A program made the translations under genes and the position numbers. Below are positions 3,976-64,000 of a stretch of DNA of 64,000 nt, piece by piece (the first letter of the stretch is position 1; each line of letters opens with the position of its first letter). The DNA comes from Nemertoderma westbladi. Lineage: Eukaryota; Animalia; Xenacoelomorpha. The notes under the pieces were generated by a model, which ran no database searches, had not been told where the DNA came from, and saw only the letters and a list, made by a program, of their open reading frames with translations. Location of the stretch: the NCBI GenBank assembly GCA_032718475.1, contig JAUCBJ010008647.1, forward strand, positions 1-64,000, in the 5' to 3' direction.

Positions 3976-4104
3976 GTTTGTTTAAACAGTTGAATGTCTA
4001 CCGCTATATTACAGTCTAAGCAAGTCTAGTAATTCAGTGTTAACTGCTAGCCTAGTAATTAATTACCGATACTGCTACTCAATGTAGTGTGATATATATA
4101 ATAT

Positions 4105-14335: not shown

Positions 14336-14352
14336 CGGCGGGCACCTTAGGT

Positions 14353-36513: not shown

Positions 36514-37074
36514 TGTTAGCTTATTCAATTCCGCTAACACCCCACAAAGTAAGCCGTTAAGCAATATTGGGAGCACGAGGTTGATTACCCAACCTCGTGC
36601 CACCCCGACAAAGTGGGAAGGAGAAACGCACAATAGGGGTCAGGGGCCATACCCCTGACAGAGAGAGAATAGCAGGAGTGAGGGGAAACACTCCAAAGGG
36701 CGCCAACAGGGATATTAGCCAATGGGGGAAGGCACCGGCTAGGTAGTGTAACGACGGCCAAACCGTGCAATATATATTATTAGGTACCATGTTACTGTAA
36801 TCAGTTATCTCATTGTATTAGTCGGTTAGCTAGGGTAGAGCGGAGACTTCTAAGACCGTCCTCGCCTACCACCATTTTATCTGTACATACTGTAATAACT
36901 CTTTGTATTTCAACCATCTATACTGTATCCATTTTATACTGTACCCATTACATTATACATATATCGGAGAATCAATAACATCAGAACTCTTAGACTCTTT
37001 TCACATTCACACGGCGGGGACGCGTACTTATAATAACCGCGGATAAACCGGGATCCTCCTTGGATCCCGTCACA
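36514..37074 (+). repeat. LTR, 561 bp
   Basis: TG...CA termini; homology to 51297-51873 and 52039-52630. Confidence 0.92.
36719..36806 (+). promoter_or_regulatory. LTR core promoter: CCAAT box, TATA, initiator
   Basis: CCAAT at 36719, TATATA at 36771, TCAGTT at 36801 (30 bp after TATA); similar arrangement in sister LTRs. Confidence 0.6.
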
Positions 37075-37113
37075 GTCTTAGAATTCCAGCCAGCTACCGA
37101 TCTAAAGTAAAAG

Positions 37114-41900: not shown

Positions 41901-44900
41901 GTAAACAATAACAGACAGAAGGACAGTCACCTGTAATAATTAGTAAACAATAACAGACTGAAGGACAGTCACCTGTAATAATTAGTAAACAATAACAGAC
42001 AGAAGGACAGTCACCTGTAATAATTAGTAAATAATAACAGACAGAAAGACAGTCACCTGTAATAATTAGTAAACAATAACAGACAGAAGGACAGTCACCT
42101 GTAATAATTAGTAAACAATAACAGACAGAAGGACAGTCACCTGTAATAATTAGTAAACAATAACAGACAGAAGGACAGTCACCTGTAATAATTAGTAAAC
42201 AATAACAGACAGAAGGACAGTCACCTGTAATAATTAGTAAATAATAACAGACAGAAAGACAGTCACCTGTAATAATTAGTAAATAATAACCTATAATTAG
42301 TAAACAATAACAGACAGAAGGACAGTCACCTGTAATAATTAGTAAATAATAACAGACAGAAGGACAGTCACCTGTAATAATTAGTAAACAATAACCTACA
42401 GAAGTACAGTCACCTCGCCTGTAATAATTAGTAAACAATAACAGACAGAAGGACAGTCACCTGTAATAATTAGTAAATAATAACAGACAGAAAGACAGTC
42501 CCTGTAATAATTAGTAAACAATAACAGATAGAAGGACAGTCACCTGTAATAATTAGTAAACAATAACAGACAGAAGGACAGTCACCTGTAATAATTAGTA
42601 AATAATAACTGACAGAAAGACAGTCACCTGTAATAATTAGTAAACAATAACAGATAGAGGGACAGTCACCTGTAATAATTAGTAAACAATAACAGACAGA
42701 AGGACAGTCACCTGTAATAATTAGTAAATAATAACTGACAGAAAGACAGTCACCTGTAATAATTAGTAAACAATAACAGATAGAGGGACAGTCACCTGTA
42801 ATAATTAGTAAACAATAACAGACAGAAGGACAGTCACCTGTAATAATTAGTAAACAATAACAGACAGAAGGACAGTCACCTGTAATAATTAGTAAACAAT
42901 AACCTACAGAAGTACAGTCACCTCGCCTGTAATAATTAGTAAACAATAACAGACAGAAGGACAGTCACCTGTAATAATTAGTAAATAATAACAGACAGAA
43001 AGACAGTCCCTGTAATAATTAGTAAACAATAACAGATAGAAGGACAGTCACCTGTAATAATTAGTAAACAATAACAGATAGAAGGACAGTCACCTGTAAT
43101 AATTAGTAAATAATAACAGATAGAAGGACAGTCACCTGTAATAATTAGTAAATAATAACAGACAGAAGGACAGTCACCTGTAATAATTAGTAAACAATAA
43201 CAGACAGAAGGACAGTCACCTGTAATAATTAGTAAACAATAACAGACAGAAGGACAGTCACCTGTAATAATTAGTAAACAATAACAGACAGAAGGACAGT
43301 CACCTGTAATAATTAGTAAACAATAACAGACAGAAGGAAATAACAGACAGAAGGACAGTCACCTGTAATAATTAGTAAACAATAACAGACAGAAGGACAG
43401 TCACCTGTAATAATTAGTAAATAATAACAGACAGAAAGACAGTCACCTGTAATAATTAGTAAACAATAACAGACAGAAGGACAGTCACCTGTAATAATTA
43501 GTAAACAATAACAGACAGAAGGACAGTCACCTGTAATAATTAGTAAACAATAACAGACAGAAGGACAGTCACCTGTAATAATTAGTAAACAATAACAGAC
43601 AGAAGGACAGTCACCTGTAATAATTAGTAAACAATAACAGACAGAAGGACAGTCACCTGTAATAATTAGTAAACAATAACAGACAGAAGGACAGTCACCT
43701 GTAATAATTAGTAAACAATAACAGACAGAAGGACAGTCACCTGTAATAATTAGTAAATAATAGCAGACAGAAGGACAGTCACCTGTAATAATTAGTAAAC
43801 AATAACAGACAGAAGGACAGTCACCTGTAATAATTAGTAAACAATAACAGACAGAAGGACAGTCACCTGTAATAATTAGTAAATAATAACAGACAGAAAG
43901 ACAGTCACCTGTAATAATTAGTAAACAATAACAGACAGAAAGACAGTCACCTGTAATAATTAGTAAACAATAACAGACAGAATGACAGTCACCTGTAATA
44001 ATTAGTAAACAATAACAGACAGAAGGACAGTCACCTGTAATAATTAGTAAACAATAACCTACAGAAGTACAGTCACCTCGCCTGTACCAATTAGTAAACA
44101 ATAACAGACAGAAGGACAGTCACCTGTAATAATTAGTAAATAATAACAGACAGAAAGACAGTCACCTGTAATAATTAGTAAACAATAACAGATAGAAGGA
44201 CAGTCACCTGTAATAATTAGTAAACAATAACAGACAGAAGGACAGTCACCTGTAATAATTAGTAAACAATAACAGACAGAAGGACAGTCACCTGTAATAA
44301 TTAGTAAACAATAACAGACAGAAGGACAGTCACCTGTAATAATTAGTAAATAATAACAGACAGAAGGACAGTCACCTGTAATAATTAGTAAACAATAACC
44401 TACAGAAGTACAGTCACCTGTAATAATTAGTAAATAATAACAGACAGAAGGACAGTCACCTGTAATAATTAGTAAATAATAACAGACAGAAAGACAGTCA
44501 CCTGTAATAATTAGTAAATAATAACAGACAGAAAGACAGTCACCTGTAATAATTAGTAAATAATAACAGACAGAAAGACAGTCACCTGTAATAATTAGTA
44601 AATAATAACAGACAGAAAGACGGTCACCTGTAATAATTAGTAAACAATAACAGACAGAAGGACGTCACCTGTAATAATTAGTAAAAAATAACAGACAGAA
44701 GGACAGTCACCTGTAATAATTAGTAAATAATAACAGACAGAAGGACAGTCACCTGTAATAATTAGTAAATAATAACAGACAGAAAGACAGTCACCTGTAA
44801 TAATTAGTAAATAATAACAGACAGAAAGACAGTCACCTGTAATAATTAGTAAATAATAACAGACAGAAAGACAGTCACCTGTAATAATTAGTAAACAATA

Positions 44901-46563
44901 ACAGACAGAAGGACAGTCACCTGTAATAAATAGTAAACAATAACAGACAGAAGGACAGTCACCTGTAATAATTAGTAAACAATAACAGACAGGAGGACAG
45001 TCACCTGTAATAATTAGTAAACAATAACAGACAGAAGGACAGTCACCTGTAATAATTAGTAAACAATAACAGACTGAAGGACAGTCACCTGTAATAATTA
45101 GTAAACAATAACAGACAGAAGGACAGTCACCTGTAATAATTAGTAAATAATAACAGACAGAAAGACAGTCACCTGTAATAATTAGTAAACAATAACAGAC
45201 AGAAGGACAGTCACCTGTAATAATTAGTAAACAATAACAGACAGAAGGACAGTCACCTGTAATAATTAGTAAACAATAACAGACAGAAGGACAGTCACCT
45301 GTAATAATTAGTAAACAATAACAGACAGAAGGACAGTCACCTGTAATAATTAGTAAATAATAACAGACAGAAAGACAGTCACCTGTAATAATTAGTAAAT
45401 AATAACCTATAATTAGTAAACAATAACAGACAGAAGGACAGTCACCTGTAATAATTAGTAAATAATAACAGACAGAAGGACAGTCACCTGTAATAATTAG
45501 TAAACAATAACCTACAGAAGTACAGTCACCTCGCCTGTAATAATTAGTAAACAATAACAGACAGAAGGACAGTCACCTGTAATAATTAGTAAATAATAAC
45601 AGACAGAAAGACAGTCCCTGTAATAATTAGTAAACAATAACAGATAGAAGGACAGTCACCTGTAATAATTAGTAAACAATAACAGACAGAAGGACAGTCA
45701 CCTGTAATAATTAGTAAATAATAACTGACAGAAAGACAGTCACCTGTAATAATTAGTAAACAATAACAGATAGAGGGACAGTCACCTGTAATAATTAGTA
45801 AACAATAACAGACAGAAGGACAGTCACCTGTAATAATTAGTAAATAATAACTGACAGAAAGACAGTCACCTGTAATAATTAGTAAACAATAACAGATAGA
45901 GGGACAGTCACCTGTAATAATTAGTAAACAATAACAGACAGAAGGACAGTCACCTGTAATAATTAGTAAACAATAACAGACAGAAGGACAGTCACCTGTA
46001 ATAATTAGTAAACAATAACCTACAGAAGTACAGTCACCTCGCCTGTAATAATTAGTAAACAATAACAGACAGAAGGACAGTCACCTGTAATAATTAGTAA
46101 ATAATAACAGACAGAAAGACAGTCCCTGTAATAATTAGTAAACAATAACAGATAGAAGGACAGTCACCTGTAATAATTAGTAAACAATAACAGATAGAAG
46201 GACAGTCACCTGTAATAATTAGTAAATAATAACAGATAGAAGGACAGTCACCTGTAATAATTAGTAAACAACAACAGACAGAAGGACAGTCACCTGTAAT
46301 AATTAGTAAATAATAACAGACAGAAAGACAGTCACCTGTAATAATTAGTAAACAATAACAGACAGAAGGACAGTCACCTGTAATAATTAGTAAATAATAA
46401 CGTACAGAAGGACAGTCACCTGTAATAATTAGTAAATAATAATAGACAGAAGGACAGTCACCTGTAATAATTAGTAAACAATAACCTATAATTAGTAAAC
46501 AATAACAGACAGAAAGACAGTCTCCTGTAATAATTAGTAAACAATAACAGACAGAAGGACAGT
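38965..46563. repeat. 42-bp satellite block (about 7.6 kb) containing a 3116-bp tandem duplication
   Basis: Diagnostic variants and ORF-track hits recur at a constant offset of 3116 bp. Confidence 0.98.
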
Positions 46564-47091
46564 TGTGAGTGTATTCAATTCTGCCTCACCAACCCCCATA
46601 AAGTGGGCCAGCGAGACCCTTAAGCAATATTGGGAGCACGAGGTTGATTACCAATCAACCTTGTATCACCCCAATAAGTGGGGCAACAATAGGCCCCAAG
46701 AGGACACACACACAATGGGGGTCAGAGGTTACACCTCCGGGAGGGAGAGAGAGACAGCAGCGGGGGGAAGTACACCCAGGGAGATGGGAAGGTGACAAGT
46801 GAGTTATTAGCCAATGGGGGGAAGGCATCGGCTGAGTAGTGTAATGCGGCCAACCGGTGCAATATATTACCATGTCGGTGTATCATTCATTCACTTGTAG
46901 TAAGTCAGTTAGTTAGGACGGTACCGGAACTCTAATTACTGTGACGGGATCCACGGAGGATCCCGGTTTATCCGGTTTCTAATCTACGCGTCCCCGCCGT
47001 GTGTGTGAAAGGTAGAAAGAGTTATTGATCGGTGTATATAGTTCCAAAGGTATAATAGTATATGATAATGGTTGTTATAATATAAGTGTAC

Positions 47092-49877
47092 CGGCAGACT
47101 GCAGGACATACTGTAGGCCTTACTGCACATACTATTATAGGCCATGCTGGGAGAGATAGAGTAGGCGATAGGGTAGTGCGAACGACGGGATTAAACCCGG
47201 AAGTCGCGGAGTACATACCGGTAGGTAGGCAAGAAGTGGGTAGGCCTATATCGGTACAGCAGCATGACTATAATACACAGGGACATAACATATATCCAGG
47301 GAAGGGGAGAGTTATTGCTGATAGATGTATGGGCCCCAATATATTAACATCAACCCCAGTACCAAACATTCCGGTGGGGGGGGGGGGGGGGGGACAGGGT
47401 GACATTCCCCCATTCCAATATCAACAATATACTCGAACAGCAACGAGAACACCTAACCCCCTGGACGAGAACAGGTCTTGCGACACGGAAATATGGAGGG
47501 GGCCGTTACCCCCAATGATATATCCGACGCAACAAGTTAGATCAACAGCAGATAGGACGAACGGATCGCACCCAACGGCAGAATCTGTACAGCATCCATC
47601 GAACCCATTGGAAGCACAGGCGATGGGAATGGCGACGCTAATCGATGCATTAAAGACCAGGATCGAGTTACCACCAGTCGAGCCATTTAAATTCGATGGA
47701 AGTAGGCCGGAAGAATACCTGCAGTTTCGGCGCATGTACAGTAACGAGATATTAAGTAAGAACTTGATGCAGGTGGAGTGCCTAAAATATCTACAGGTGT
47801 ATACAGGAGGCCCAGCATACGACATCGTGAGGCAGTACCAGAGCATCGAGGGCGGCTTCACGACAGCATGGCGGGCGCTAGACAGGGAATACGGACACCC
47901 GGCCAAGATCATCCGGCAAACCCTGAGAGGTATAACATCGGGTGGCCTACAGGACAACCCCGTTAGCATAAAGACCTTTGCGAACAAGGTCGAGAAGGCG
48001 TTAATCGTGTTAAAGACGCTAGACGCGCCATACGAACTCAACGCATCTAATAACATCACCACAATAGCGCAGGCACTGCCGATCTGGCTGCGGAGCAAGT
48101 GGAGGAAGATCGCCTTCTCCACTCGAGAGAAGAAAGGTGCGGAGCCGGGGCTGGAGGAAATGTCAAACTTCCTCAACTACGAAGCCGAGTTGATAACAGA
48201 CCCAGTCTATAGTGAGGATAGTTTGGGGAAGGCGCCAAAGACCGAATACAACAGGCCTGGACCCGAACATAATCCGACAGATCCATTCTCGAGAGTAAGA
48301 CAGTCGCTACCACACGCGGCCACACAGGGGGCTACAAGCCCACAGTTAGCTGGGAGTAGGGCCACACCGTGGCAGGGACAGAAAGAAAATAACACCATAA
48401 ATAAACATAATCCCAATATACCCAGTAGGCCGAGTACAGATAACCAAAACACTAAATCGGTAGATATAAACCTACGCGCAATACGTGAAGGACTATATAG
48501 GGAACGCTATAATCCAGGATTCAAATTTCAATTACATCGGGACGGAACCCATAAGACCATGAGTTCTAAGCACTGGCAAGCGTTGCCCAAACAAGATCGT
48601 ATAGCCTACACAGACGCAAATGGACTATGTCATCGATGTGTGGTAGAAGGACACAGATCCGGAGAGTGTAGAGAAACAGCGACAGGAGATAACGAGACTG
48701 GAGGCCAAACAATGGCTACAAGCACGACAGTGGCAAGAAAGAAGAGAAAAGTACTACTCGGGGTAGTACTGGTGAAGATATCAGGAGAGGGCGGTCGATC
48801 AGTAACGACATTAATGCTGGTCGACAGCGGAGCAGCCTTCACGCTGGTGGAGAACTGGGTGGCCGAAGAGATAGGGCTAAAGACGAGGCCGAATAGAATG
48901 GCGGTAACCACCGTCTCAAGTAAGGATGAGGTCCTGGAGATGAGGACGGGACGGTGCAGGATATCAGCGATTGCACCGGGATGCAACTATGGGGCGACGA
49001 TCGACCCCATCCATGTGATAGAATCGATAAACATCAACGCCAGGCGACCAACCAACATCGAAGTCGAACAATATACAGTACATTCCTGGACGGTATCGAT
49101 TTCTCAATACCAGAGGTGGACGTTAGGAAGGTATCCATTATAGTAGGAATGGACTGCCCGACGGCCCACGAGAGAACAAAGACGGTCTTCGGCGAAGACA
49201 GGCAGCGGGACCCGACGGCGATCCTCACGCCGTTCGGATGGACGCTTAGCGGCCCAGTTAAAACCAAGATTCCATCCAGAGTGACGGAGACATCAGGGTG
49301 CATGTTACCAGGCACCGTAGACACGGAGGTTGAAGAGGAGAAACAGGAGATAGTAGAGCCAGACAGGGAAGTAACAGTAAGAGAGTGGGCGGAGGAGAAT
49401 GGATTTCCCAGCAAGTATCGGTATGGAGATGGAGAGGAGTGGACGGCGAGATGTCCGGAGGAGTGTCCGGTGGAGTGTCAGGAGGACAATAGTCCAGAGC
49501 AGTGTCTAGAGGAGTGTCCAGAGGAGTGTCCGGAAGAGACGCCGGTCCGGTTGAGAGGCATACCGACAAGGGGGAGCTCGAGTAGGAAGACAGGATGGAA
49601 AGGGATAGGACTATTGTTGTACCTTCTGTTTTGCCTGTTCTTTCACTTTCTATTCATTCTGCCGCCGGGAGATAACAAGGTGGGAGGTGGCATTTTGATG
49701 CCAGGAGACGAGAAAGTTAAGAAGGCGGTGGAGAGACCCGATTTCAGGGTGGCAGAAGAGAGAGAACCAATTCCTGGTGAGTTGGAATTGGTGGAGAGAG
49801 TGTGGCAAAGAATAAGAGGACGTATAAAGGAGGCAGTGGGAGAGTGCCTACTGGAAAAAGGGGCACTTCAGAGTTAA
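47092..49877 (+). pseudogene. gag: Gag-protease remnant, 5'-deleted, frameshift near 49075, unrelated C-terminal tail
   Basis: FKFDGSRPEEYLQF, CHRCVVEGHRSGEC, protease MLVDSGAAFT, AILTPFGWTLSGP; highly similar to 60.1-62.3 kb (minus). Confidence 0.85.
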
Positions 49878-50099
49878 GTCGTCCAATATTTTGGACTGAG
49901 GGGGGTGGGAATGAGGGCGAGACGCCCTTCCCACACAAATAATTATTTAATTAAAATAAATAACAAAATAATTAAATAATAAGATAAGTAGAAGGTAGAA
50001 AGTAATAGTTAGAAGAGATAGTAAGTAGTAGCAAGGAGTAGTAGAAAGTAGTAGTAGAGTGTTAGAAGGTGGCAGGGTAAGGGAGTGTGGTATATTAAC

Positions 50100-50900
50100 A
50101 TGCCACGAGTAGTAGCAGAGGGGTTGTGGGCACCGGAAGCGCCACGTAGAAAGTAGTAAGAGAGGGGTTGTGGGCACCGGAAGCGCCACATAGAAAGTAG
50201 TAAGAGAGGGGTTGTGGGCACCGTAAGTGCCACGTAGAAAGTAGTAAGAGAGGGGTTGTGGGCACCGGAAGCGCCATGTAGAAAGTGGTAGCAGAGAGTG
50301 GTTGTGGGCACCGCAAGCGCCACATAGATAGAGGTAGTAGAGTAGTAGAGAGGGCACATAGGGTGCCAGGTAGTAGAGTAGTAGAGAGGGCACATAGAGT
50401 GCCAGGTAGTAGAGTAGTAGAGAGGGCACATAGGGTGCCAGGTAGTAGAGTAGTAGAGATTGGCACATAGGGTGCCAGGTAGTAGAGTTAGAGGTAGTAG
50501 AGTAGTAAAGAGGGCACATAGGGTGCCAGGTAGTAGAGTAGTAGAGAGGGCACATAGGGTGCCAGGTAGTAGAGTAGTAGAGACGGGCACATAGGGTGCC
50601 AGATAGTAGAGTGGTTGTGGGCACCGCAAGCGCCATGTAGATGGAGGAAGTAGTAGTAGAGTGGTTGTGGGCACCGCAAGCGCCACGTAGATGGAGGTAG
50701 TAAGCAGAGTGGTTGTGGGCACCGCAAGCGCCACGTAGAAACTAGTAAGTAGAGTTAGAGTTAGTAGAGAGTTAGAGGGTTTTAGTTAGAGCTAGTAGAG
50801 TTAGAGTTAGTAGAGAGTTGGAGAGTTCTAGTAGAGTTAGGAGTTAGTTAGAGTTAGAGAAGTTAGATAGTTAGATAGTTAGCAAGTTAGACCTTAGATA
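50100..50900 (+). repeat. Mixed 44-bp and 36-bp tandem repeats plus purine-rich low complexity in the 3' UTR
   Basis: GGGTTGTGGGCACCGGAAGCGCCAC... at 44-bp period; GGCACATAGGGTGCCAGGTAGTAGAG... at 36-bp period. Confidence 0.85.
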
Positions 50901-51283
50901 AGGTAGATAGTATGATAGCACAGGGGTAGCATTAGAGATTAGGGCCTTAGGGAGTGGCAGAGAGTAGAGAGGAGTATGGAGAGGAGCTGCTGGCGAGAGG
51001 CAGAGCAGGCGAGTGCGATTCAGGTGTGGGGAGAGAGTAAGAGCGGAGTTAGAGCGGAGTTAGAGTGGTGAGAGTGTTGGGGAAACAAAAGTTGTGTGAA
51101 AGAAGCGCACGATCGGCCCGACACGAGACGCCAGAGGGTAGTGACATCATACCCATAGGGAGCAGCCTGGAAAGCCGACTCCAAGAAAAAATAACTCCAC
51201 CCCACACCCGATAATAGATCGAGTTCCAGCGGAATTGAAGCGCACTTAGAGGTTGATGCTATCTTCTCTCCGGGAAGATAGCA

Positions 51284-51296
51284 TGGGGGGGGGGAG
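51284..51296 (+). other. Polypurine tract
   Basis: G-run plus AG directly before the TG of the 3' LTR. Confidence 0.85.
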
Positions 51297-51873
51297 TGTG
51301 AGCGTATTAAATTCCGCCTCACCAACCCCCATAAAGTGGGCCAGCGAGACCCTTAAGCAATATTGGGAGCACGAGGTTGATTACCAATAAACCTTGTATC
51401 ACCCCAATAAGTGGGGCAACAATAGGCCCCAAGAGGACACACACACAATGGGGGTCAGAGGTTACACCTCCGGGAGGGAGAGAGAGACAGCAGCGGGGGG
51501 AAGTACACCCAGGGAGATGGGAAGGTGACAAGTGAGTTATTAGCCAATGGGGGGAAGGCATCGGCTGATTAGTGTAATGCGGCCAACCGGTGCAATATAT
51601 TACCATGTCGGTGTATCATTCATTCACTTGTAGTAAGTCAGTTAGTTAGGACGGTACCGGAACTCTAATTACCGTCACCGTCATTCCTGTCATCTGCCAA
51701 TAGTACATATATCATTTACCAGTACACTTATATTATAACAACCATTATCATATACTATTATACCTTTGGAACTATATACACCGATCAATAACTCTTTCTA
51801 CCTTTCACACACACGGCGGGGACGCGTAGATTAGAAACCGGATAAACCGGGATCCTCCGTGGATCCCGTCACA
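51297..51873 (+). repeat. 3' LTR, 577 bp
   Basis: TGTGAG...GTCACA; about 5 differences from the 5' copy over 46564-46939. Confidence 0.95.
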
Positions 51874-52038
51874 ACAGTCACCTGTAATAATTAGTAAACA
51901 ATAACCTATAATTAGTAAACAATAACAGACAGAAAGACAGTCTCCTGTAATAATTAGTAAACAATAACAGACAGGACAGTCACCTGTAATAATTAGTAAA
52001 CAATAACAGACAGAAGGACAGTCACCTGTAATAATTAG
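51874..52038. repeat. 42-bp satellite, short block between two elements
   Basis: About 4 units. Confidence 0.95.
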
Positions 52039-52630
52039 TGTGACGGGATCTGCGGAGGATCCTGGTTTATCCGGTTTTTGGTTCCTAGTTTACGCGTCCC
52101 CACCGTGCGTGAAAGATATAAAGAGTTCTGGGTTGTTGATCAATCGATGTATATAAGTTCGGGATATAATATAATAGAGATAATAGCACAAATGGTTGAT
52201 GTATGATGTAATGTACCGGTAGGTGATATGTACTGGTGACGGGGGGCGGAGACGGTAACTAGACCTAACTGTAACTAACGGTACTGTCCTAACTAGCTGA
52301 CTTACTACAAGTGAATGAAATATTGCATGGACCGGTAATATATTGCACAGTTGGCCATATTGCTCTACCCAGTCGATGCTTCCCCCCAATTGGCTAATAT
52401 CCTAATTGTCGCCCCTTTACCTTCCCTGGAGTGTTTCCCGTTACTCCTGTTATTCCCTCTCTCTCTCAGGGGTGTAACCTCTGACCCCTTTGTGCGTATG
52501 TCCTCCGGGGTTTCCTTGTCCCCACTTTATTGGGGTGGTACGAGGTTGATATTGGATATCAACCTCGTGTTCCCAATATTGCTTAAAGCTCACTTTATGG
52601 GGCTGGTTAGTGGAATTGAATACGCTAACA
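52039..52630 (-). repeat. 3' LTR, 592 bp
   Basis: Minus strand reads TGTTAGCGTATTCAATTCC...CCCGTCACA; preceded by GGGGGGGAG. Confidence 0.93.
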
Positions 52631-53337
52631 CTCCCCCCCATGCTATCTTCCCGGTAAGAAGATAGCATCCACCTCTAGTGCGCTACAATTCCACTGGATC
52701 TCGACCTAGTATCGAGTGTGGGATGGAACTATTTTTATTTTTTTCAGAGCCAGTTTTCCAGACCGCCCCCTATGGGTATGATATTGCTACCCTGTCTACC
52801 TGGCGTCCCGTGTTGGGCCGATCATGCGCTCCTTTCACACGACTTTTGTTTCCCCAACACTTTCGCCACTCTAACTCCACTCTATTCTCACCCTGACTCT
52901 CGCTACTTCTCCTCACCTCCGCTCTAACTTTCGGACTTCCCTGTCCCTCACTCGCCCTCTTGTTCCTCCCCCCCCACACTTGAGTCGCACTTGCACTCTC
53001 TCCGCACTTCGCACTATCGCTCCATCGCTCGACCCCTCCTTGGCTAACTCACTCATCTCTGACGAGTCCCATCCCCCTCTCCTGTGCCGTCGCACTCAGG
53101 AAATGTGAAGTCGTCTAGTGTCTCGTTCGTCATAGTCAGTCATCCCCCGGTCCAGTAGCTAATTGGAAAAAGGTTGAGTGACTATAGTACTTACTTCAAT
53201 TATATTTTGCTAAACTAATAATGATTACTACGTACGTACCTACTAATTGCACTTTTCAATTGTTTAAATTACTTAAATTTATACTTAGGAGTTCGCACGT
53301 CTCGCGTGGTGCCTTCCAGGCATATTACTCCGAAGTC

Positions 53338-55511
53338 CTAGTTCGTTCCACCAGCCTTTGGGAACCACCTCAAGTCTTTCCCTTTGTCTTCCCCCTCCCT
53401 GGGTCGTTTCCTGGTCACTGCCGCTCCTCTGGTCTTGTCTGCTTTCTGGCTTCTGACTCTCGCCGCCACCTCCTTGCTGATCCCGGTCGTCGACTCCTTG
53501 GGTGCCGGTGTTATTAGCTCCCGGTATCGCTTCGCGGGTGGCCCCTCCGAGTGGCCCTGTTGTCTCCCCCTGATGGCGTCCCATAGGATCATCTTCATTG
53601 CCCGCGGCACATGCTCCGCCAAGAAATCCCTAAACTCTCCTCTACTCTGTGGCGTCCACCTATACAAATACCTCTGCGTATTTATCACTCCGGCATATGA
53701 TGCCGCCGTCGCCACTTTCTGGTAGGTAAACGGAAGCCTCCGTTTGATAATCTCCATGTGAGCCTCCTGATTGATGTTAAAGAAGCCCCACCGGAACTCC
53801 TGGGCCTTCATACGTTGCCGAGTCATCGCCCCGACGTCGGCCCATTCCTCGAAGATCCTAAACTTCTCTTCGTCGTCCATCCAGTCGCACTGGCGTCCGT
53901 AATGTCCCCGAAAGTTACACTTCGAACATCGGTTATGCAACCGTGGTCACGCCCCCATCCTGTGGCTCGACTCACGGCAATAGAGACAACTAGTCCCTTT
54001 CTGGACCCGGTACAAACAGCTCCTTTCCTGATGGGTCTGTCTCCCACAGTAATCACAGCTGAGCACCAATGTCTCCCGCCCTACGTCGTCTTTCGTCCCA
54101 AGCGATCTCCGTGGTCTGTGGAGTCGCTGATAAGCAAACTTCCGGACGTTAGCGTCCCTATCTACGTCGATCTCCTCGCCCCTCTCGGGCATCGTCTCCC
54201 CGAATACTACCCTAGAGACTCCCCCGAACTCCCTGATGAAGTCCAACGAAGTTCGTCCAAGCCCGCTTGTTCCTCGAAGCCGTAGCTCTGTGCCCTAGCT
54301 TCCTCCTCCCTTTCTTCTGCTTCTCTCCTTTCCCGTCTGGCGACTTCTTCCAGTCGCTTCGCCTCTCGCCTATCCGTCTCTAGCTGCTCCCATCTCTGAC
54401 ACGGCGTATCCACCTCCCCGTCTACCAGATGTCGGCTGTTATAGTACACCGACTCGCCCTTCAGCCCCGGGTGGTCTACCAGACCCTCGAAAGCCGTCTT
54501 AAAGGCTCTTCTGTAGTTTAGGGGTGATCCCGATAATAGGAATGCCGTTGGTTCCCTCTCAATAATCACGGTCATGAATAGGTTAAGCAAACCTATCATT
54601 ATCCAGTCCTCCTGTAGGATATATCGCTTCTGATATACCTTTATAGCTCCTCTCCGGAATTGATACACCTCTTGTCTCCCTGGCCTCGCTCCCCACTTCA
54701 GTGAGTTCGCCAAGTCTGCTCCGTACTCCTCTCTGAACTTGCCCCAGTCCATCAGTTTGTGACACATGAGCCCCATTAACTGGCCCATCGCCACTGCCCC
54801 GCAATGTCCTGTGGTCTCTATTAGTCCCAATCCGTCCGGCGCTGTCATAGCCATGTACACCGTCTGCGTATCCAGAAGGTTGGGGGTGTCCGGACCGATG
54901 ATCCTCTCCGCGTCGTCGCGAATCGCCGATCCCACTTTTGTCCTCGACTTCTCTCTCACTAGTACTTGCACTGCCTTCGGCAGCCGGTTTAACTTCGGCC
55001 CATCCTTCTTTCCATACGTTCCTAGATCGAATAGGAATATGTCCCCATTTGGCACAGCCAAATGTAGGAGTATGGTTCTGGCTGACGCCGCCGATCCTCT
55101 CCTCGAACCCTCCTCGTCTTCCATGGTCCCCTCATCGTCCAGGACCATATACCCTTCTCTGCTGACGGACTCTACGAACCTCTTCCAATCCTTCCTCGGT
55201 GGATCCCTTGCGTACTTCGGAATCCCGAACTTCGCTTCGTCTCCTTTTATCACGTAGTGGAAATGCTCGAAGATCGCGTTGTCCAGCGACAGCGTCCCGT
55301 AGGTCCCGACCAGCCACTGTTCGTGCACCTCCCTGAAATGGTCCTGTAGCGCTCGCGCTGCGTGACCCCTCTCTAACCGTTCGTAGTATCCCCTCGTTCT
55401 CTCTTCCGGATGCCTCTTGGTGAAATCCACCAGTATCTCCTTTCCTCCTAGCTCCGCCTTTCTCTTTCGCACAAGTTTGCTTGCCATCTCGAACTTTACC
55501 CGATCGCTCAC
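53338..55511 (-). pseudogene. Accessory ORF: DEDDy (RNase D/WRN/EXD-like) 3'-5' exonuclease plus three CCHC zinc knuckles; one frameshift and one stop
   Basis: ExoI-like YMVLDDEG, LLHLAVPNGDIFLFDL, LPKAVQVLVREKSRTKVGSAIRDD (ExoII-like), LLDTQ, ExoIII-like YQKRYILQED; CDYCGRQTHQERSC, CLYCRESSHRMGA*, CSKCNFRGHYGRQC. Confidence 0.72.
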
Positions 55512-55979
55512 CCGTTGGGTGGTGCCTTACCAAGGCGCAGTAGGGTGAGTGATAGGTTAAGGTGGTTTATCTCAGTTCGATGGCCTATCTCCCTCTGGAT
55601 TACTAAGTTAATTAGCCTATTTCCACTGCTTGATTTCTGTAGCTACCAAATTGTACCTAAATTGTGAATTTTGTCAGTTACTTTTATTATGTTCCAGAAT
55701 TTTCTTGCTGCTGTTACCATAATTTGTCAATTTCTTAGCTCTATCCTATTTTGGTATTTTTAATCTAATTCAATCCTACCATTGTGCTGTTACTTACTAT
55801 TGCCTATGGATTATTCTATTTCATAATCCACATTCTGGCCTACTCTGTGGGCTTGTGCAGTACAACAGTATGCGTCGCGCGGCCTACACGATTTATCCAG
55901 CTGTACTCATATGCCCCCTCTCGCTACTAACTACTAACTAATGTCTATACTATATATATATATCCCTCTACCTCTTACT

Positions 55980-56500
55980 CTTACAAACCGGTACTACGTA
56001 CCCTCTTACTAACTTCTAACTCTCTCTAACTAACTAACTAATCGGTACTGCGTACCCTCTTACTAACCTCTAACTCCACTAACTAACTAATCGGTACTAC
56101 GTACCCTCTTACTAACCTCTAACTCCCTTAACTAACTAACGGTACTACGTACCCTCTTACCAACCTCTTACTTTCTCCAACTAACTAACGGTACTATGTA
56201 CCCTCTTACCAACCTCTAACTCTCTCCAACTAACTAACGGTACTATGTACCCTCTTACCAACCTCTAACTCTCTCCAACTAACTAATGGTACTACGTACC
56301 CTCTTACTAAACTCCAACTTCTGCCTACTGATGGTACTACGTACCCTCTTACTAACTAACTTCTGCCTACTGATGGTACTACGTACCCTCTTACTAACTA
56401 ACTTCTGCCTACTGACGGTACTACGTACCTTCTTACTAACTAACTTCTGCCTACTGACGGTACTACGTACCCTCTTACTAACTAACTTCTATCTACTGAC
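55980..56500. repeat. Tandem repeats of about 42-50 bp between pol and the accessory ORF
   Basis: About 11 copies of GGTACTACGTACCCTCTTAC(T/C)AAC... Confidence 0.85.
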
Positions 56501-56625
56501 TTTCGCTTCTTATTATTTTTTATTTTATTTTTATTTTTATTGTGTAGGAAGGGCGTCTCGCCCTCAATCCCACCCCCCTCAGTCCAAAACTTGGACGACT
56601 AAACTACACTAAAAACCACACTAGT

Positions 56626-59600
56626 TCAAGGTGCCCCCTCTAGTAGACAGCATTTTCCTACAGCCCTCCTGTAGGTCTTTCTGTCTTTTGCACCTATCTT
56701 TCCACCTATTCGCACTTCTACCGATCGGACTCTTCCATCCTCATCGGAGTAAGTGCCCACAACTCTCGCCAACCGCCATTGGTTGTTGATGATGGTATCA
56801 TCCGTGACGATCACCAGATCACCCTCCTTTAGCTCTCTGTTCGTGTTCCTCCACTTACTTCTTCTGTGTAATGTGGGCAGATATTCCTCGACCCACCTCC
56901 TCCAGTATTCTGCGCTTATCGCCTTAGCGACTTTCCAACTCTGGCGGGAGTGTATGTCGTCTGGGTCTACACCCCGCATGTCGACTGTCGCCGGCCTCTC
57001 CATTAGAAAGTGACTGGGCGTCAGCACGTCTAATGACTCAGGGTCATCATTCTCTGGATATAGCGGTCTGCTATTAATGATACCCTCACACTTTGCCAGT
57101 ACTGTCCTTAGTACGTCCTCTGTAACCATGTGGGTGTTCATCAGCTTCGTCATCAGACGTTTCGAACTACCCAATAATCTCTCGACGCATCCTAGGGTAT
57201 GCGGAGCATACGGCGTCCTCCTCTCCCACTTTACTTGTCGCCTTCTCATGGCCGCCCTGACTTCCTCCCCTTCCAGGATATCCAAGGCCTCCGCCATCTC
57301 GTTCTCCGCCCCCACAAAGTTGGTCCCGCTGTCAGAATACAGTACTGCGATTGTCCCACCTTTGCGGTCTCTAAATCTTTCTAAAGCATTAATGAATGCT
57401 GATGCGGTTGCATCTTGGGCGAGTTCTATTCCTACCGCCCGCGTGTTGTTACATACGAAGATGATACCATAGCGTTTCTCCGTGTGCCGCATCACCTTAA
57501 TCTTTATCGGCCCGAACATATCCACACTGCAATGCGTAAATGGCGGGTCGTGCTGTCTTACTCTACTGGCCGGTAGTGGCGCCATTTCCTGTATGGCCCG
57601 TTCCTTCTTCTCCCGTCGGCAGCTCTGGCACTGCCCCACTACCGCCTTTACCTTCTTCCTCAACTGTTTGACCCAAAAGGTCCTTCTTATCTCCGTGAGG
57701 GTTCGGTTGGTGCCCCCGTGCAATATCGATTTGTGGGAGTCCCAGATAATCTGGTGGACTATCGGCGATCCTGTGGGAATGATGATGGGCTTCGGTGGTA
57801 CGACGATACTGTTGTTGTATCCCACCCTAGAGTTCATTACTAGGATCCCGTCGTCATTAAGTTGTGGTGACAGCGTGATCAGCTCGCTGTCCCGCCGGAG
57901 ATGCTGTTGCTTACCAACGCGTTCCACCTCGTCGCCATAGTTCTTCCTCTGCTCGTAGTGGATGACTGCTTTGGCCGCTCCTTCCAGGTCTATTGTCGTT
58001 CTAATCTTCACGTCTTTACCAACTCCCCTGAGGAAATTCCCGAAGGCTCTCCAGTATGCCACTAACTTCTTGGTCTTGTACCAACTAGAACTGTAGCTAA
58101 GGAGTTTATCCGTCGGGTTATCGCACAGTTCTCCTGGTTTTGGTTGCACGTCCCTTATCTCCCTCACCATCTGGGAGTATATCTCCTCTCCCTCTGAATC
58201 TCCCTCTTCTCCTTCTGACACTACTTCTCCTGAGCCCGGGTCCACCTTTCTCATCGGCGGCCAGGCCTCCCTATCGCTCAGAAACTGTGGCCCGTGTTGC
58301 CACAATACTTCCTTCTTCAAGAAAGTGTGGCGTACCACGCCCCTCGATAACAATTCCGCTGGGATCTCGTCCGTTGGGCAGTAGTGCCACCTTTCCAGTT
58401 TTGTGGTCGCCCTTATTTCGTCCACTCTATTCGCGACGAATATAGGGTATCTCGTCCTTTCGTTGTGTAGCCAACCGAGCACTACCATGGAATCCGTCCA
58501 GTAGTGTGTTTCCACTATGTTGGGAATAGCGTCCACTAAGTAGGGTATGGCCCTAACTCCTAATCTCGCAGCTGTCAACTCGAGTTTCGGAACTGATGCT
58601 GAGTCTGGTGGCGTCGACTTCGCTTTACTGAATGCGAGTCTGGGCTTGTGAGCCCCCTCTCGTTGTACTAAGTAGAGTGCCGCTCCATATGCCTCTAATG
58701 ACGCATCGGAGAACATATGTAGATCCAGATTCGTCTCCCCATCCGGGAAATATACACGCGGCATGCTGTATGTTCCCATCTGCTCTAAACTCTCTGTCCA
58801 CTTGTTCCACTGCTTACTAATCTCTTCTGGGACCTCTGCGTCCCACTCGTCCTTTAATTTGTATACTCTCTTGAGTATCTGTTTCCCCGTGACTAGTAAT
58901 GGGGATGCTAGGCCTAGGGGATCGTATATCCTCGCTATATATGACACATAGCCCCTCTTTGTGTGGATACCTGCTCCCTCCTGACTCAATTGGTATTTTA
59001 ACTCATCTGTCTCTCTGTTCCACACGATTCCCAGTGCCTTCTGTTGAGACTCTATCCTCTTGTTCGCCATGTCCTGCCCCTTGGCTGTTGTGGGATTATC
59101 CATGGTCGATCCTGGTCTCTCGTCTTTTATTGCCTCGATAAATTCCTTCGAACTGGATTGGAATTTGGTTAGGTTGAAGCTGGATCCTTTAAGGATGTCG
59201 CGAACCTCGCGCCCTGTGTCCAGTAGCTCCTTAACCGTATTTCCAGACTCCATCCCGTTGTCTACGTAGAAGCCGCGTCGAATCATATCGACGGCTTTGG
59301 CGCTGAACTTATCTTCCTTCCCTGCTACCGTATCTCTTACGGCCATAGTCGTTGTAAACGAAGACGACTTGGCTCCCATATTCTGTAATACCATCTTATA
59401 CATTGGTATGGTCGACGGTTCCTCATCGCCGTCGTACCATAGGAAGCGTTGGCTGTCGCTATCCTCTCCCGTTACACGGACTTGGTTGAACATGCCTTCA
59501 ATGTCGCAGGTGAAAGCGTGTTTGCCATTCCTGAATCTGAGTAGGACCTCGATCCCTGAGTTGTAGATGTTGGGACCCTCCAGCAGATAATCGTTTAGGC

Positions 59601-60189
59601 ATTTCCCGTTGGTCTTGGCTGATGCGTCAACTGCCATCCGCAGTTTACCTTTCTTCGGGTCTATAGCCACGTGGAGTGGCAGGTAATAGGTCCTGTCCGT
59701 GTTTGGCTCGTCGACCGGTAACTCCACGGCCCATCCTTTCTCGACATACTTTCTAATTGTCTTCTGGATGTACTCATTCTTCTCGGGGCTCCGTTTTAAC
59801 GTCTGCTTTAACTTGCGAAGCCTCGTAAGTACCATCCCTTTGTTGTCGGGTAACGGTAGCTTTGGTAGCTTCCATACCATCCCTATGGTATACCGCCCCT
59901 CATCGCATGTCATCGATTCCTTTACACTTTGTAAAGCCTGCTTGTCTTCTACCGAGGTTCCGACCCCGGTCTCCTTTAATCCCTCAAAATCCTGCCTGAG
60001 CAGTCTCCTGAGTTGCTCCCCTGCTCCCTCATCCTCCATCTCTCGCATAGTTCCCGCGAACATGCATCCTGATGTCTCCGACATCCTAAATGGTATCTTA
60101 CTCTTGATTGGGCCACTCAGTGTCCACCCGAATGGTGTCAATATCGCCACCGGGTCACATTGCCTGTCTTCGCCGAAGACCGTTTGCAT
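56626..60189 (-). CDS. pol: BEL/Pao Pol: RT, RNase H, integrase (1187 aa open, but cut off from Gag by a stop and an 80-bp duplication)
   Basis: CDIEGMFNQV, FYVDNG, HMFSDAS, VPKLELTAA, WTDS, H...H...CQSC, SVDMFGP, YSDSGTNFVG, GCVERL, LTPSHFL. Confidence 0.95.
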   Translation of the reverse strand: MQTVFGEDRQCDPVAILTPFGWTLSGPIKSKIPFRMSETSGCMFAGTMREMEDEGAGEQLRRLLRQDFEGLKETGVGTSVEDKQALQSVKESMTCDEGRYTIGMVWKLPKLPLPDNKGMVLTRLRKLKQTLKRSPEKNEYIQKTIRKYVEKGWAVELPVDEPNTDRTYYLPLHVAIDPKKGKLRMAVDASAKTNGKCLNDYLLEGPNIYNSGIEVLLRFRNGKHAFTCDIEGMFNQVRVTGEDSDSQRFLWYDGDEEPSTIPMYKMVLQNMGAKSSSFTTTMAVRDTVAGKEDKFSAKAVDMIRRGFYVDNGMESGNTVKELLDTGREVRDILKGSSFNLTKFQSSSKEFIEAIKDERPGSTMDNPTTAKGQDMANKRIESQQKALGIVWNRETDELKYQLSQEGAGIHTKRGYVSYIARIYDPLGLASPLLVTGKQILKRVYKLKDEWDAEVPEEISKQWNKWTESLEQMGTYSMPRVYFPDGETNLDLHMFSDASLEAYGAALYLVQREGAHKPRLAFSKAKSTPPDSASVPKLELTAARLGVRAIPYLVDAIPNIVETHYWTDSMVVLGWLHNERTRYPIFVANRVDEIRATTKLERWHYCPTDEIPAELLSRGVVRHTFLKKEVLWQHGPQFLSDREAWPPMRKVDPGSGEVVSEGEEGDSEGEEIYSQMVREIRDVQPKPGELCDNPTDKLLSYSSSWYKTKKLVAYWRAFGNFLRGVGKDVKIRTTIDLEGAAKAVIHYEQRKNYGDEVERVGKQQHLRRDSELITLSPQLNDDGILVMNSRVGYNNSIVVPPKPIIIPTGSPIVHQIIWDSHKSILHGGTNRTLTEIRRTFWVKQLRKKVKAVVGQCQSCRREKKERAIQEMAPLPASRVRQHDPPFTHCSVDMFGPIKIKVMRHTEKRYGIIFVCNNTRAVGIELAQDATASAFINALERFRDRKGGTIAVLYSDSGTNFVGAENEMAEALDILEGEEVRAAMRRRQVKWERRTPYAPHTLGCVERLLGSSKRLMTKLMNTHMVTEDVLRTVLAKCEGIINSRPLYPENDDPESLDVLTPSHFLMERPATVDMRGVDPDDIHSRQSWKVAKAISAEYWRRWVEEYLPTLHRRSKWRNTNRELKEGDLVIVTDDTIINNQWRLARVVGTYSDEDGRVRSVEVRIGGKIGAKDRKTYRRAVGKCCLLEGAP

Positions 60190-60192
60190 TCT

Positions 60193-63100
60193 CTAGTGGG
60201 CCGTTGGGCAGTCCATTCCTACTATGATGGATACCTTTCTAACGTCCACCTCTGGGATTGAGAAGTCGATACTGTCCAGGAATCTGTATTGTTCGACCTC
60301 GATGTTGGTTGGCCGTCTGGCGTTAATATTTATCGACTCTATCACCTGGATGGGGTCTATGGTCGCCCCATAATCGCATCCCGGTGCTACCGCTGCTATC
60401 ATGCACTGTCCGGTTCTCATCTCCAGAACCTCATCTTTGCTGGAGATGGTTGTTACCGCCATTCTACTTGGCCTCGTTCTCAATCCCGTCCGGTTCTCAT
60501 CTCCAGAACCTCATCTTTGCTGGAGATGGTTGTTACCGCCATTCTACTTGGCCTCGTTCTCAATCCTATCTCTTCGGCCACCCAATCCTCAACTAAGGTG
60601 AAGGCTGCACCACTGTCGACCAGCATGAGTGTGGTTACTGATCGGTTGCCTTCGCCGATTATCCTTACTGGTACTACCCCTAATAGTACCGTCCCTCTCT
60701 TCTTTGCTACTTCGGTGCTTGTTGCCATTGTTTGTCCTTTACTCTGACCGAACTTAGTTGGCGTTTCTCTGCATTGTCTAGCTCTGTGTCCACTCATCAC
60801 GCATCGCAAGCAGATGTCATTTCTCGCCGCGTATTCTACCTGATCTTCCCTGGGTAGCGCCTGCCAGTACCTGCAGTTCATGGTCTGATGAAGCGCATTT
60901 GAATGTAGCTGACATTTGCTCTTTGGATCGTAGCCATCCTTATACAGTGCATTGCGTATCGCAGATGCATTTGTACCAAAGTCCTTACTGTTCTTATTGT
61001 TTAAATTCTGCCTACTGGGCGTACTGGGGGTATGTTTATTTGTGTTGTTATTTTTCCCCTGTCCGCTCCATGATGTGGACTTACCCTCGGCTACCTGTGG
61101 ACTTGCAGTCCTCTGCGTCGCTGCGTATGGCAGTGATTGCCTGAGCTTTGGTAATGCGTTTGACGTGTTATGTTCTGGTTTCGGCCTGTGGTAATCGGTC
61201 TTTGATCCCTTTCCCAGGCTATCCTCGCTGTATACTGGGTCCGTTATAAGTTCAGCTTCATAGTTTAAGAAGCTTGACATCTCTTCTAAACCCGGTTCCG
61301 CACCCTTCCTATCTCGAGTGGAGAAAGCGATTTTCCTCCACTTATTGCGCAGCCACATCGGAAGTGCCTGGGCTATCGTTATGATGTTGTTGGACGCGTA
61401 TGGCGCATCCAATGTCTTTAGCACGATTAGCGCCTTCTCGACTTTGTTAGCGAATGTCTTTATGCTAACGGGGTTATCCTGTAGGCCACCCGATGTTATA
61501 CCTCTCAGGGTCTGCCGGATGATCTTGGCCGTGTGCTCGTATTCCCTGTCTAACGCCCGCCATGCCGTCGTGAAGCCACCCTCGATACCCTGGTATTGCC
61601 TCACGATGTTGTATGCTGGGCCCCCTGTATATACTTGCAAATACTTTAGGCACTCCGCCTGCGTCAAATTCTTTGTTAATATTTTGTTACTATACATGCG
61701 CCGAAACTGTAGGTATTCTTCCGGTCTACTCCCATCGAATTTGAATGGTTCCACGGGTGGTAACTCGATCCTTGTTTTTAGTGCATCGATTAATGTGGCC
61801 ATCCCCACCGCTTGCGCTTCCAATGGGTTCGATGGGTGCTGCATAGGTTCTCCCGTTGGGTGCGGTCCGTTCGTCCTGTTTGCCGCTTTCCTCTGACTTG
61901 GATATATCATAGGGGGTAGCGGCCCCCTCCATATTTCTGTGTCACATGATCTATTCTCGTCCAAGGGGTTCGATGTTCTTACTCCTACTGGGGTATATTG
62001 TTGATATTGTGATGGGGGAATGTCACCCTGCCCCCCCCCCCCCCCCCCACTGGTATATTTGGTACTGGGGTTGATGTTAATATATTGGAGCCCATGCATC
62101 TATCCGCAATAATCCCCCCTTCCCCTGGGTATATGTTATGTCCTTGCATGCTGTAGCCATACTGCTGTGCTGGTACCGGTATAGGCCTATCTACTTCTGG
62201 TCTCCTTGCCGGTATATACTCCGCGACTTCCGGGTTTAATCCCGCTGTTCGCGCTATCCTATCGCCTATATTATCTCTCTCAGCATAGCCTATGGTATGT
62301 GCAGTAAGGCCTACAGTATGTCCTGCAGTCTGTATGTGTCGCTCGGGATCGAAGTTTATCCTTCTCGAATAATCCTCCCCGCGCCCACCGCATTCTCGAT
62401 CGGTAGGTATATCCCGTCGGGAAGCTTCTCTTCGACCCCCTCTACTGCTCTCGCTCTCGTGCCGGTACATCCCGTACCCCTCTCTCTGTGCGCAATACGC
62501 CTCGTCAGGTCGCACTCCTCCGGGGCGACGGCAATCTCCCGAAGTTCGACCCTGCTGACTCTCCGTCTCCACCTCTACCACCGACGGCTCGCTATCCGTC
62601 CTCGCTCTCCTGTCGTTCGTGGCGACACTTCTTCCACTCTCTTCCCTTCTTCTCTCTGTAGTGCAGTATTCCCGCTCGTGAGATCTCTCGTCGACCTCCC
62701 GGTTAAACTCCACTGTTCTTCTTCCCTCTTCTGATCAGGCTCGACGCTTCGTCCGCCCTCTCGCGACGTCAACCTGTCTCTCTCTGCTCGATTGCATGCC
62801 GCTGGGGATACTCGCAATCCCCCTATCACTCTCCGTCGCCGGGTGTTGCGGTTTACCTGTCTCAGCCCGCGCATTATCCGTCGACGTCTGTGGGGCACTC
62901 TCTGCCCCCCACTTTTCGCCGCTAACTCGCTGTTGTGGGGCTCCTGTAGCCCCCCCCCCCCCCACTCGCCACATCTAACTTCACTATCTCTCACCCCGCT
63001 ACTATATCCCTCTCTAGCCGACACATCAACCCTACTGCGGCTGGGTCCATTCACCCCCGCCTCTCCCTCTGCTATTGTGTGGCCTACCAGGCCCTCTACT

Positions 63101-64000
63101 TTCTGCCTACTAATTACGTGGCCTACCAGGCCCTCTCCGGGTTGGCTCAACCCCGCCACTTCCAGCCCACTAACTAAGTGGCCTACCAGGCCCTCGTCTG
63201 CCGGGTTATACACGTCCAACACATTCACGTTAATAGCACCACTAATATTGTCATTGGTTAGATCAATTAAATCCTCTAACTCGATTAAGTTACCTTGTGC
63301 GCCCAAATTAGAAACGGAATTATTTTGCTCGTTCGAAATAAGATTATTTGAATTATTTTGTAAATTCAGACTTATATTTAAATTATTTGAATTATTTTGT
63401 AAATTCGGACTTAGATTATTTATTTTCTTTTGATTATTTTCTACATTAATATTAGAATCACTAGGATTTAAATTACTACTGTCGGGCAAAATATTATTTC
63501 CTGCAATGAAAGTTTGATTAGAATTATCTAGTACAGTACTATTAATATTAACGTTGTCTACTGTATCATTATTATTACCCCCCCCCCCCACCCGTACAGT
63601 TACACCAGTCTCGGGTCTGTCGTGCGGTCCCTGTAAGTGGGGTATTAATAAATGTTTCTTCGACCCTCGGCTAAGCACTCGAGCCAGCGTCACTCTCTGA
63701 CAGCCCCATCTGGGCCATTTTTAGTCTGCGCTTCTGTCTGGTTTGGTACTGAATGAGCCCCCCTAGGCGGGCATGTAAACCATCCCGCACACGCTTCCCC
63801 TCTGCTGCTCTTTCCCGACTCTCCCGCGTGCTCTGCTCGGCCAAATCCCTCGCTCTCTCAACTCTCTCCATTCGTTTCGCCTCCCTTGCCACCTCACGCT
63901 CTTTAAGTTCTGCCTCGCGCTCTTTTCGTTCAGCCTCGCGCTCTTTGCGTTCACACTCCTCTCTCGCCTCACGCTCTTCTCGTTCCTTCCTCCCTATTTC
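60193..64000 (-). pseudogene. gag: Gag-protease of the family A element, broken by frameshifts
   Basis: Successive ORFs switch frame at or near G-homopolymers; FKFDGSRPEEYLQF, CLRCVMSGHRARQC, MLVDSGAAFT. Confidence 0.88.

Follow-up and report, generated by a model that had tools for sequence, protein, structure and literature searches.

The question raised by this locus is what a BEL/Pao retrotransposon carries in the slot between its pol gene and its 3' LTR, where an env gene would sit. The ICTV profile of the Belpaoviridae (PMC8742986) gives no third genes of the family other than env-like ones. The window analyzed here, 64,000 nucleotides of Nemertoderma westbladi contig JAUCBJ010008647.1, is repeat-rich animal DNA with several BEL/Pao elements inside it. 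A sequence-only reading of the window had proposed that one of these elements holds an extra ORF in that slot, and such an accessory coding region is present, with a BEL/Pao pol on one side and a polypurine tract and LTR on the other. Our analysis supports the identification of this region as a DEDDy-type exonuclease-like accessory gene combined with zinc knuckles.

Host element and its setting in the window

The host element lies on the minus strand and extends from past position 64000 down to 52039, with its 5' LTR outside the window. Even without that LTR, the element is longer than 12 kb. Its gag and protease region (60193 to 63720, minus strand) is broken into four pieces (63720-62575, 62734-61985, 62099-60480, and 60510-60193) and includes a 79-bp tandem duplication at 60408-60566. 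Pfam recognized DUF1759 (E 4e-11) and an aspartic protease (E 3e-5) in these pieces. The pol gene (56626 to 60192, minus strand) is open over 1188 aa and encodes reverse transcriptase, RNase H, and integrase, with Pfam matches to PF05380 (E 2e-40) and PF18701 (E 9e-24). Both domains were present in all 49 pol homologues among the matches listed. The element thus has the Pao-type gag and pol domains (DUF1759, Asp protease, Peptidase_A17, Integrase_H2C2, and DUF5641) in the order PR-RT-RH-IN. The nearest database relative of pol was 33% identical, and a scan of viral contigs with pol gave no match. The reverse transcriptase motif reads YVDN, and a second BEL element in the window, at 12617-14362, reads YVDD. 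The YVDN form has been reported for Cer7 to Cer12 of Caenorhabditis elegans in the available text of PMC554778. Downstream of pol, repeat analysis showed a tandem-repeat spacer at 55965-56500, which separates pol from the accessory region. A polypurine tract lies at 52631-52652, followed by a 592-bp 3' LTR (52039 to 52630, TG...CA) that abuts a 42-bp satellite; all three features are on the minus strand. By its gag and pol domains, polypurine tract, and 3' LTR, the host element is a BEL/Pao LTR retrotransposon (Belpaoviridae).

Two further elements in the window belong to the same family. One, a young, nonautonomous sister at 46564-51873 (plus strand), has gag-protease in one frame and lacks most of pol and ORF3. 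The 5' parts of its LTRs are identical at 371 of 376 positions, and compared with the 3' LTR, its 5' LTR ends in 155 bp of inverted sequence (46940-47094). The other relative (36514-38979, plus strand) consists of an LTR and the N-terminal 623 aa of a gag frame that the satellite truncates, and it is 80 to 86% alike to 63230-64000. At least three members of the family, all within 36500-52040, border on this 42-bp satellite, a pattern that may reflect a target preference or tolerance. The satellite itself spans about 27 kb (19100-46560), and translation of its unit gives LLQVTVLLSVIVY-like repeats, which are in frame with the PF02932 match (E 1e-8) of an exon for a Cys-loop receptor (8891-9376). 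From this correspondence, noted over 8891-9630 and the satellite, the satellite appears to have arisen from the part of the exon that encodes the pore helix (M2). Two BEL/Pao elements from other families, with gag or gag-pol, lie on the minus strand at 738-3981 and 9500-17244. The BEL element at 17244-10700, with 29 to 40% identity in pol, lacks a third ORF; no ORF after its pol exceeds 89 codons.

Layout of the accessory region

Three open minus-strand stretches (55526-54207, 54294-53947, and 53946-53338) were present in the ORF listing and correspond to the three ORF pieces described earlier. The remaining two frames were stop-rich across each of them. The first stretch holds ORF3a (54207 to 55487, 426 aa), which consists of the exonuclease-like domain and a charged coil. 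Its first ATG is at 55487, which replaces the start previously placed at 55511, and lies in a strong Kozak context with G at -3 and +4. The charged coil of the earlier description was recovered from composition as an E/R-rich helix at 54290-54395 (minus strand), which likely forms a coiled coil. The other two stretches make up the ORF3b frame (53338 to 54294), which is in the -1 frame and encodes zinc knuckles, then a helical region, and then a basic region. ORF3b has its own ATG at 54192 (284 codons), and the sole interruption of the frame is one in-frame stop at 53947-53949. The three knuckle motifs occupy 53887-54057 on the minus strand (54057-54016, 53988-53947, and 53928-53887). Of the three CCHC knuckles claimed, the first and third have a complete C-x2-C-x4-H-x4-C pattern, and the middle one is interrupted by this stop. 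A zf-CCHC_4 match on the knuckles (E 0.004) was under the Pfam cutoff. No signal peptide or convincing membrane anchor was found in either ORF3 frame, the strongest hydrophobic 19-mers scoring 1.47 in ORF3a and 0.47 in ORF3b. The lack of a convincing anchor in both frames indicates that the third gene is not an env.

Copies of the element and selection on ORF3

We examined other copies in assembled DNA contigs from four runs of three studies (14879, 8024, 7414, and 165 contigs per run); runs X1 and X2 come from one sample, and X1 is possibly the window's own source. Contigs 85 to 100% alike filled every bin of 52000-58000, from pol to the LTR, in all four runs, so the ORF is multicopy. No RNA run was among the sequencing runs listed with matches, a result that has no bearing on expression. 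At the ORF3b stop codon, more than 99% of contig depth differed from the window in all four runs from the three studies, indicating that the stop is private to the window copy. The in-frame stop claimed from the sequence is therefore real for this copy and absent as a family trait. The same reading had treated the shift of frame between 54295 and 54246 as a break in one ORF. However, the offset is common to other copies. No indel with a share of at least 22% was found over 54180-55180 in either of two runs from two studies (2136 and 1287 contigs), the overlapping -1 frame being kept, and contig depth showed no dip at the junction of ORF3a and ORF3b. The same comparison detected high-share indels elsewhere, at 53166 and 55913, indicating that the frame offset is a family trait and not damage. 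The contigs are short: none of the 16 contig pieces listed spans 54250, and none joins ORF3 to pol in other copies, for which we infer the linkage. A minor DNA deletion variant skips 54330-55469, which is nearly all of ORF3a; it occurred in three runs of two studies, with low depth, and other internal deletions were also among the variants listed. We rejected the joint 54329-55470 as a splice, since its ends lack GT-AG.

No LTR, TIR, or target-site repeat was found bounding the ORF3 cassette, which has the same orientation as pol and is placed ahead of the polypurine tract. We therefore rejected a separate nested insertion, of which the window shows no sign. Among metagenomic BEL loci, 78 were fetched, 3 without the pol C terminus were dropped, and 75 were kept; they are only 29 to 37% identical in pol, and two of them (L144 and L192) are one contig. 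The exonuclease ORF was absent from all 29 of the 75 loci that had at least 1 kb of downstream sequence (54 segments of at least 100 aa, E up to 1). ORF3 is thus a lineage-specific cargo of this element. Six of the loci (L144, L192, L191, L136, L130, and L186) have another long gag-like frame within about 1 kb, which suggests tandem arrays of BEL elements in many metagenomic loci.

Selection across copies was assessed from 40 of the 83 differences from the window copy in 54180-55180. In the ORF3a frame, 26 of these 40 differences were at third positions (p 4e-5), and 29 were synonymous compared to 12.1 expected when the same change types were placed randomly (p 5e-5). In each of the other two frames over ORF3a, 6 of the 40 would be synonymous and 2 would create stops. 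These counts show that purifying selection acts on ORF3a, and none of the 40 differences falls at the codons of the putative catalytic residues D117, E119, D192, W265, Y289, and E293. For comparison, 11 of 17 listed sites in pol were at third positions. For ORF3b the figure was 3 of 7, which is uninformative on selection.

Junction between ORF3a and ORF3b

The stop map shows both frames open over an 85-nt overlap zone (54210-54294, minus strand), with no indel. Within it, a 14-bp hairpin with a 1x1 internal loop (54218-54252, minus strand) is a candidate -1 frameshift stimulator. Its predicted stability is -16.9 kcal/mol (z -2.3 and -2.7), and shuffled sequences were as stable in 4 of 200 and 1 of 200 cases, or 6 of 200 for a longer window; the hairpin was selected after scanning 12 windows, and other parts of ORF3 contain more stable ones. 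No canonical X XXY YYZ slippery heptamer was found near the junction in the window copy. In most other copies, two positions that immediately precede the hairpin differ from the window, going by the 40 of 83 differences listed. In the ORF3a frame (frame A), the listed differences at 54258 and 54260 leave the amino acid unchanged. The difference at 54247, in the unpaired loop of the hairpin, is nonsynonymous in that frame and occupies a third codon position of frame B. At these three listed sites, constraint appears to pass from frame A to frame B just before the hairpin. We give even odds to a -1 ribosomal frameshift joining ORF3a to ORF3b. Such a shift would give a protein of about 717 aa, close to the joined product of about 720 aa that had been proposed, whose existence as a single protein we only infer.

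The main competitor is that two separate proteins are made, a free ORF3a nuclease and an ORF3b knuckle protein that starts at ATG 54192, either by reinitiation 15 nt past the ORF3a stop or from a transcript with alternative splicing; in that case the coil may mediate their association. At -3 this ATG has a purine, just upstream of it are a short run of pyrimidines and an AG, all three knuckle motifs lie downstream of it, and the window copy has no canonical slippery site, all of which would suit two proteins. However, frame B is already open for 34 codons ahead of the ATG, and the hairpin and the apparent constraint switch (three sites) are also upstream of it. On this evidence, we consider separate translation rather unlikely.

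Resemblance of ORF3a to DEDDy exonucleases

The DEDDy-type 3'-5' exonuclease-like domain was placed at 54531-55250 (minus strand) by profile score, alignment, and a seeded fold model. The putative catalytic residues of ORF3a are D117 and E119 (ExoI), D192 (ExoII), W265, and Y289 and E293 (ExoIII). In the alignment, D117, E119, and D192 fall on invariant or nearly invariant columns of PF01612. WRN, EXD2, mut-7 (Nibbler), EXD1, and Egalitarian share the motif order DxE, L.LA, LFD, LP..V..L, KVG...D, D, W, and Q..Y...[DE]. MAFFT placed the ORF3a motifs in the same order (DxE, HLA for QLA, LFD, LP..V..L, KVG...D, LLD, W, and Q..Y...E), with the Trp after ExoIII also in register and the motifs collinear over about 180 residues. 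The DEDDy motif spacing proposed from the sequence was thus recovered in full order, except that the ExoIII Asp is Glu. ExoIII of ORF3a is Y289-x3-E293, followed by D294, and so does not have the Y-x3-D of DEDDy enzymes. ORF3a differs from the PF01612 group in its low identity to the aligned proteins (10 to 21%), in insertions, and in scoring below the Pfam threshold.

The resemblance was quantified with profiles built from PF01612 domains of 61 genomes and 120 longer proteins, eukaryotic ones included. Against a profile of 56 dereplicated domains, ORF3a scored 11.8 bits (E 6e-6 as a single comparison), a score reached by none of 500 shuffles. It ranked first of 103 window segments and above 567 natural nonexonuclease sequences, the next best of which scored 4.1 bits. 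A eukaryote-rich profile gave 11.6 bits, compared to 22 to 36 for true distant members, and the local profile match was limited to about residues 133 to 208. Small profiles were weak or negative (best 2.6 bits, with 2 of 500 shuffles), and with the NrnC, RNase D, and PolA profile sets the score was not above shuffles. These scores quantify a resemblance and are not a discovery, because the hypothesis was drawn from the same motifs. The best-scoring profiles were WRN/EXD2-like, a preference that is biased by the absence of EXD1, Egalitarian, mut-7, and Rrp6 sequences from the profiles, and hhalign of ORF3a against ten bacterial WRN-like proteins gave a probability of 0.4%.

Database searches did not bear out the exonuclease and knuckle matches anticipated for the extra ORF. 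ORF3a had no match in Pfam at E up to 1 or 10, falling short of the curated PF01612 model, and the knuckle match was the one below cutoff described above. There was also no match to ORF3a in PHROGs, NCBIfam, or PDB sequences, and none of 7996 candidates from a search of 5.8 billion proteins matched it. Among 1.84 billion representatives, three matches were obtained, all to TPR repeats, and these were rejected as homologues because they share a short motif only. Metagenome and viral contigs contained no ORF3a locus, and the last piece of ORF3b had no match in viral contigs. A further search gave 3 weak phage matches at E 4 to 5.

AlphaFold on the single ORF3a sequence gave a pLDDT of 30, and with a 42-row exonuclease alignment it gave a pLDDT of 73.6 and a pTM of 0.75. 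Structure prediction therefore returned an exonuclease-like fold only when fed an exonuclease alignment. The seeded model is circular in this respect and indicates compatibility with a DnaQ-like fold, not proof of it. In a Foldseek search with the seeded model, the Trypanosoma brucei RNase D TbRND (7c45) was the top match (E 3.9e-7, TM 0.59, 16% identity), and Egalitarian was also among the foremost. By VIA, the model was closest to RNase D 1yt3 (Z 15.7, rmsd 3.3, 176 aligned), with TbRND at Z 15.0 (rmsd 3.4, 198 aligned) and Nibbler, WRN, EXD1, and Egalitarian at Z 14.4 to 15.5. RNase D, Nibbler, WRN, TbRND, and EXD1 were tied within 1 Z unit. TbRND was also the second-ranked match for ORF3b, at a nonsignificant E of 0.46. 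We consider it very probable that the ORF3a domain has the DEDDy fold. Its catalytic activity is uncertain because the last catalytic Asp is replaced by Glu; an active D-E-D-E enzyme is somewhat favored. Its substrate would probably be RNA rather than DNA.

Alternatively, ORF3a may be a pseudonuclease that binds RNA ends without cutting them, as do EXD1, Exuperantia, and Egalitarian, and serves the transport or shielding of the element RNA. The ExoIII Glu is apparently the majority state, with no difference at that codon among the 40 of 83 listed. Egalitarian and EXD1 are among the structural neighbors of the seeded model, and DEDD derivatives in the piRNA pathway are inactive binders (PMC5408684). 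However, ORF3a retains the Tyr and three of the acidic residues, and the replacement of the fourth is conservative. Rotifer ORF3s with a D-to-E change ("DEED") are still called possibly active (PMC5408684), and the structural ranks that include EXD1 are tied within 1 Z unit. We regard a purely binding role as unlikely.

An enzyme that acts on DNA, either as a WRN-like proofreader of reverse transcription or as a trimmer of cDNA ends before integration, is improbable. The WRN/EXD2-like top profiles would point to it, but that preference carries the bias described above, and the wide divergence of copies (85 to 99% alike) is neutral, neither supporting nor excluding it. Zinc knuckles usually bind RNA, which argues against a DNA substrate. 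In addition, the gene stands apart from pol and has no evident route of entry into the particle, and none of the 29 other BEL loci with at least 1 kb downstream carries it. It is very improbable that the ORF encodes something other than an exonuclease or came in as a nested passenger, since the failure of databases to recognize ORF3a, the lack of the cassette in the sister element (46564-51873, about 79 to 84% alike), and the unseen ORF3-pol link in the short contigs of other copies are outweighed by the specific profile test and motif order, by a cassette that is co-oriented and ahead of the polypurine tract with no bounding repeats, by contigs in every bin from pol to LTR in all four runs, and by the loss of most of pol as well from the sister element.

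Proposed role of the accessory gene

Our preferred reading, to which we give a probability of roughly 0.4, is that ORF3 is a selected accessory gene, likely a DEDDy-type RNA exonuclease, that is joined to the knuckles by a likely -1 frameshift and would trim the 3' ends of RNA, either the element RNA itself or RNA near it. Expression would be from a spliced subgenomic RNA, as we assume by analogy with other ORF3s. The majority of ribosomes would produce the 426-aa nuclease-coil protein, and a minority would produce the fusion of about 717 aa. By analogy with the CCHC fingers of TbRND, the knuckles would grip single-stranded RNA and pass its 3' end to the nuclease. The likeliest use of such an enzyme would be to counter host RNA defense, by trimming small guide RNAs or the tailed 3' ends of element RNA, and defeat of a small-RNA or tailing-based restriction is a plausible payoff. 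A more specific form, in which a second programmed frameshift sets a fixed ratio of free to fused exonuclease and the fusion suppresses small-RNA or tailing defense in convergence on trypanosome RNase D, is speculative, and we would not expect it to hold in full.

Relation to known elements and significance

An accessory exonuclease is said to occur in a C. elegans Cer element, a nematode BEL element. In the literature searched, no exonuclease ORF was found described for BEL/Pao. The word "exonuclease" occurs 0 times in the available text of PMC3118150, PMC2774666, and PMC554778, and the available part of PMC11662393 mentions no BEL exonuclease ORF. The element shares with the Belpaoviridae that carry an env-like gene, such as Tas and Cer7, the gag-pol order, the Pao-type domains, the third slot, the polypurine tract, and the LTR (PMC8742986; available text of PMC554778). 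However, the third gene of Tas and Cer7 is env-like, whereas the ORF3 described here is not, and Belpaoviridae measure 4.2 to 10 kb (same sources), compared to more than 12 kb here without the 5' LTR.

The closest precedent is in rotifers, where Juno, Vesta, and Athena/Terminon elements carry DEDDy ORF3s; DEDDy exonucleases were previously unreported in retrotransposons according to Rodriguez et al. 2017 (PMC5408684), and the case is repeated in the available text of a 2017 review (PMC5718144). In Juno, Vesta, and Terminon, as here, a DEDDy-type gene is 3' of pol in the env slot, and one catalytic Asp is changed to Glu (PMC5408684). In contrast, the rotifer elements belong to bdelloid lineages that are not described there as BEL/Pao, and their motif is DEED, whereas that of ORF3a is D-E-D-E, a comparison made by description and not by sequence (PMC5408684). 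The rotifer ORF3s are also stated to be without coiled coils, and the paper describes neither a knuckle array nor a second, overlapping frame in them (PMC5408684).

The order of domains is similar to that of TbRND, in which a DEDD exonuclease domain is followed by an array of CCHC knuckles (available text of PMC7797062). According to the same text, the four CCHC fingers bind RNA and touch it upstream of the active site, and the Asp equivalent to the ExoIII position is critical (D230A). However, TbRND is described there as a cellular mitochondrial enzyme with one reading frame, four knuckles, and a canonical DEDD motif. Its structural match to ORF3a comes from a model fed with exonucleases, in which it ties with RNase D, Nibbler, WRN, and EXD1.

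The novelty of the general theme is reduced by the published rotifer DEDDy ORF3s (PMC5408684). New here are the host lineage (BEL/Pao), the very divergent D-E-D-E nuclease, the three knuckles, and the conserved frame offset. If the junction is a programmed frameshift, recoding would operate in an accessory gene instead of in gag-pol. As an unbroken frame of 426 aa, ORF3a is amenable to direct assay, so that its function in counterdefense, RNA end processing, or proofreading is a testable question. As far as the literature was searched, nuclease third genes are otherwise described only for rotifer retroelements. No selection was shown for the rotifer ORF3s, whereas here purifying selection acts on a nuclease-like gene in a different LTR family. 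With such a gene under selection in a second LTR family, capture of a DEDDy nuclease seems to be a strategy that LTR elements have adopted repeatedly.
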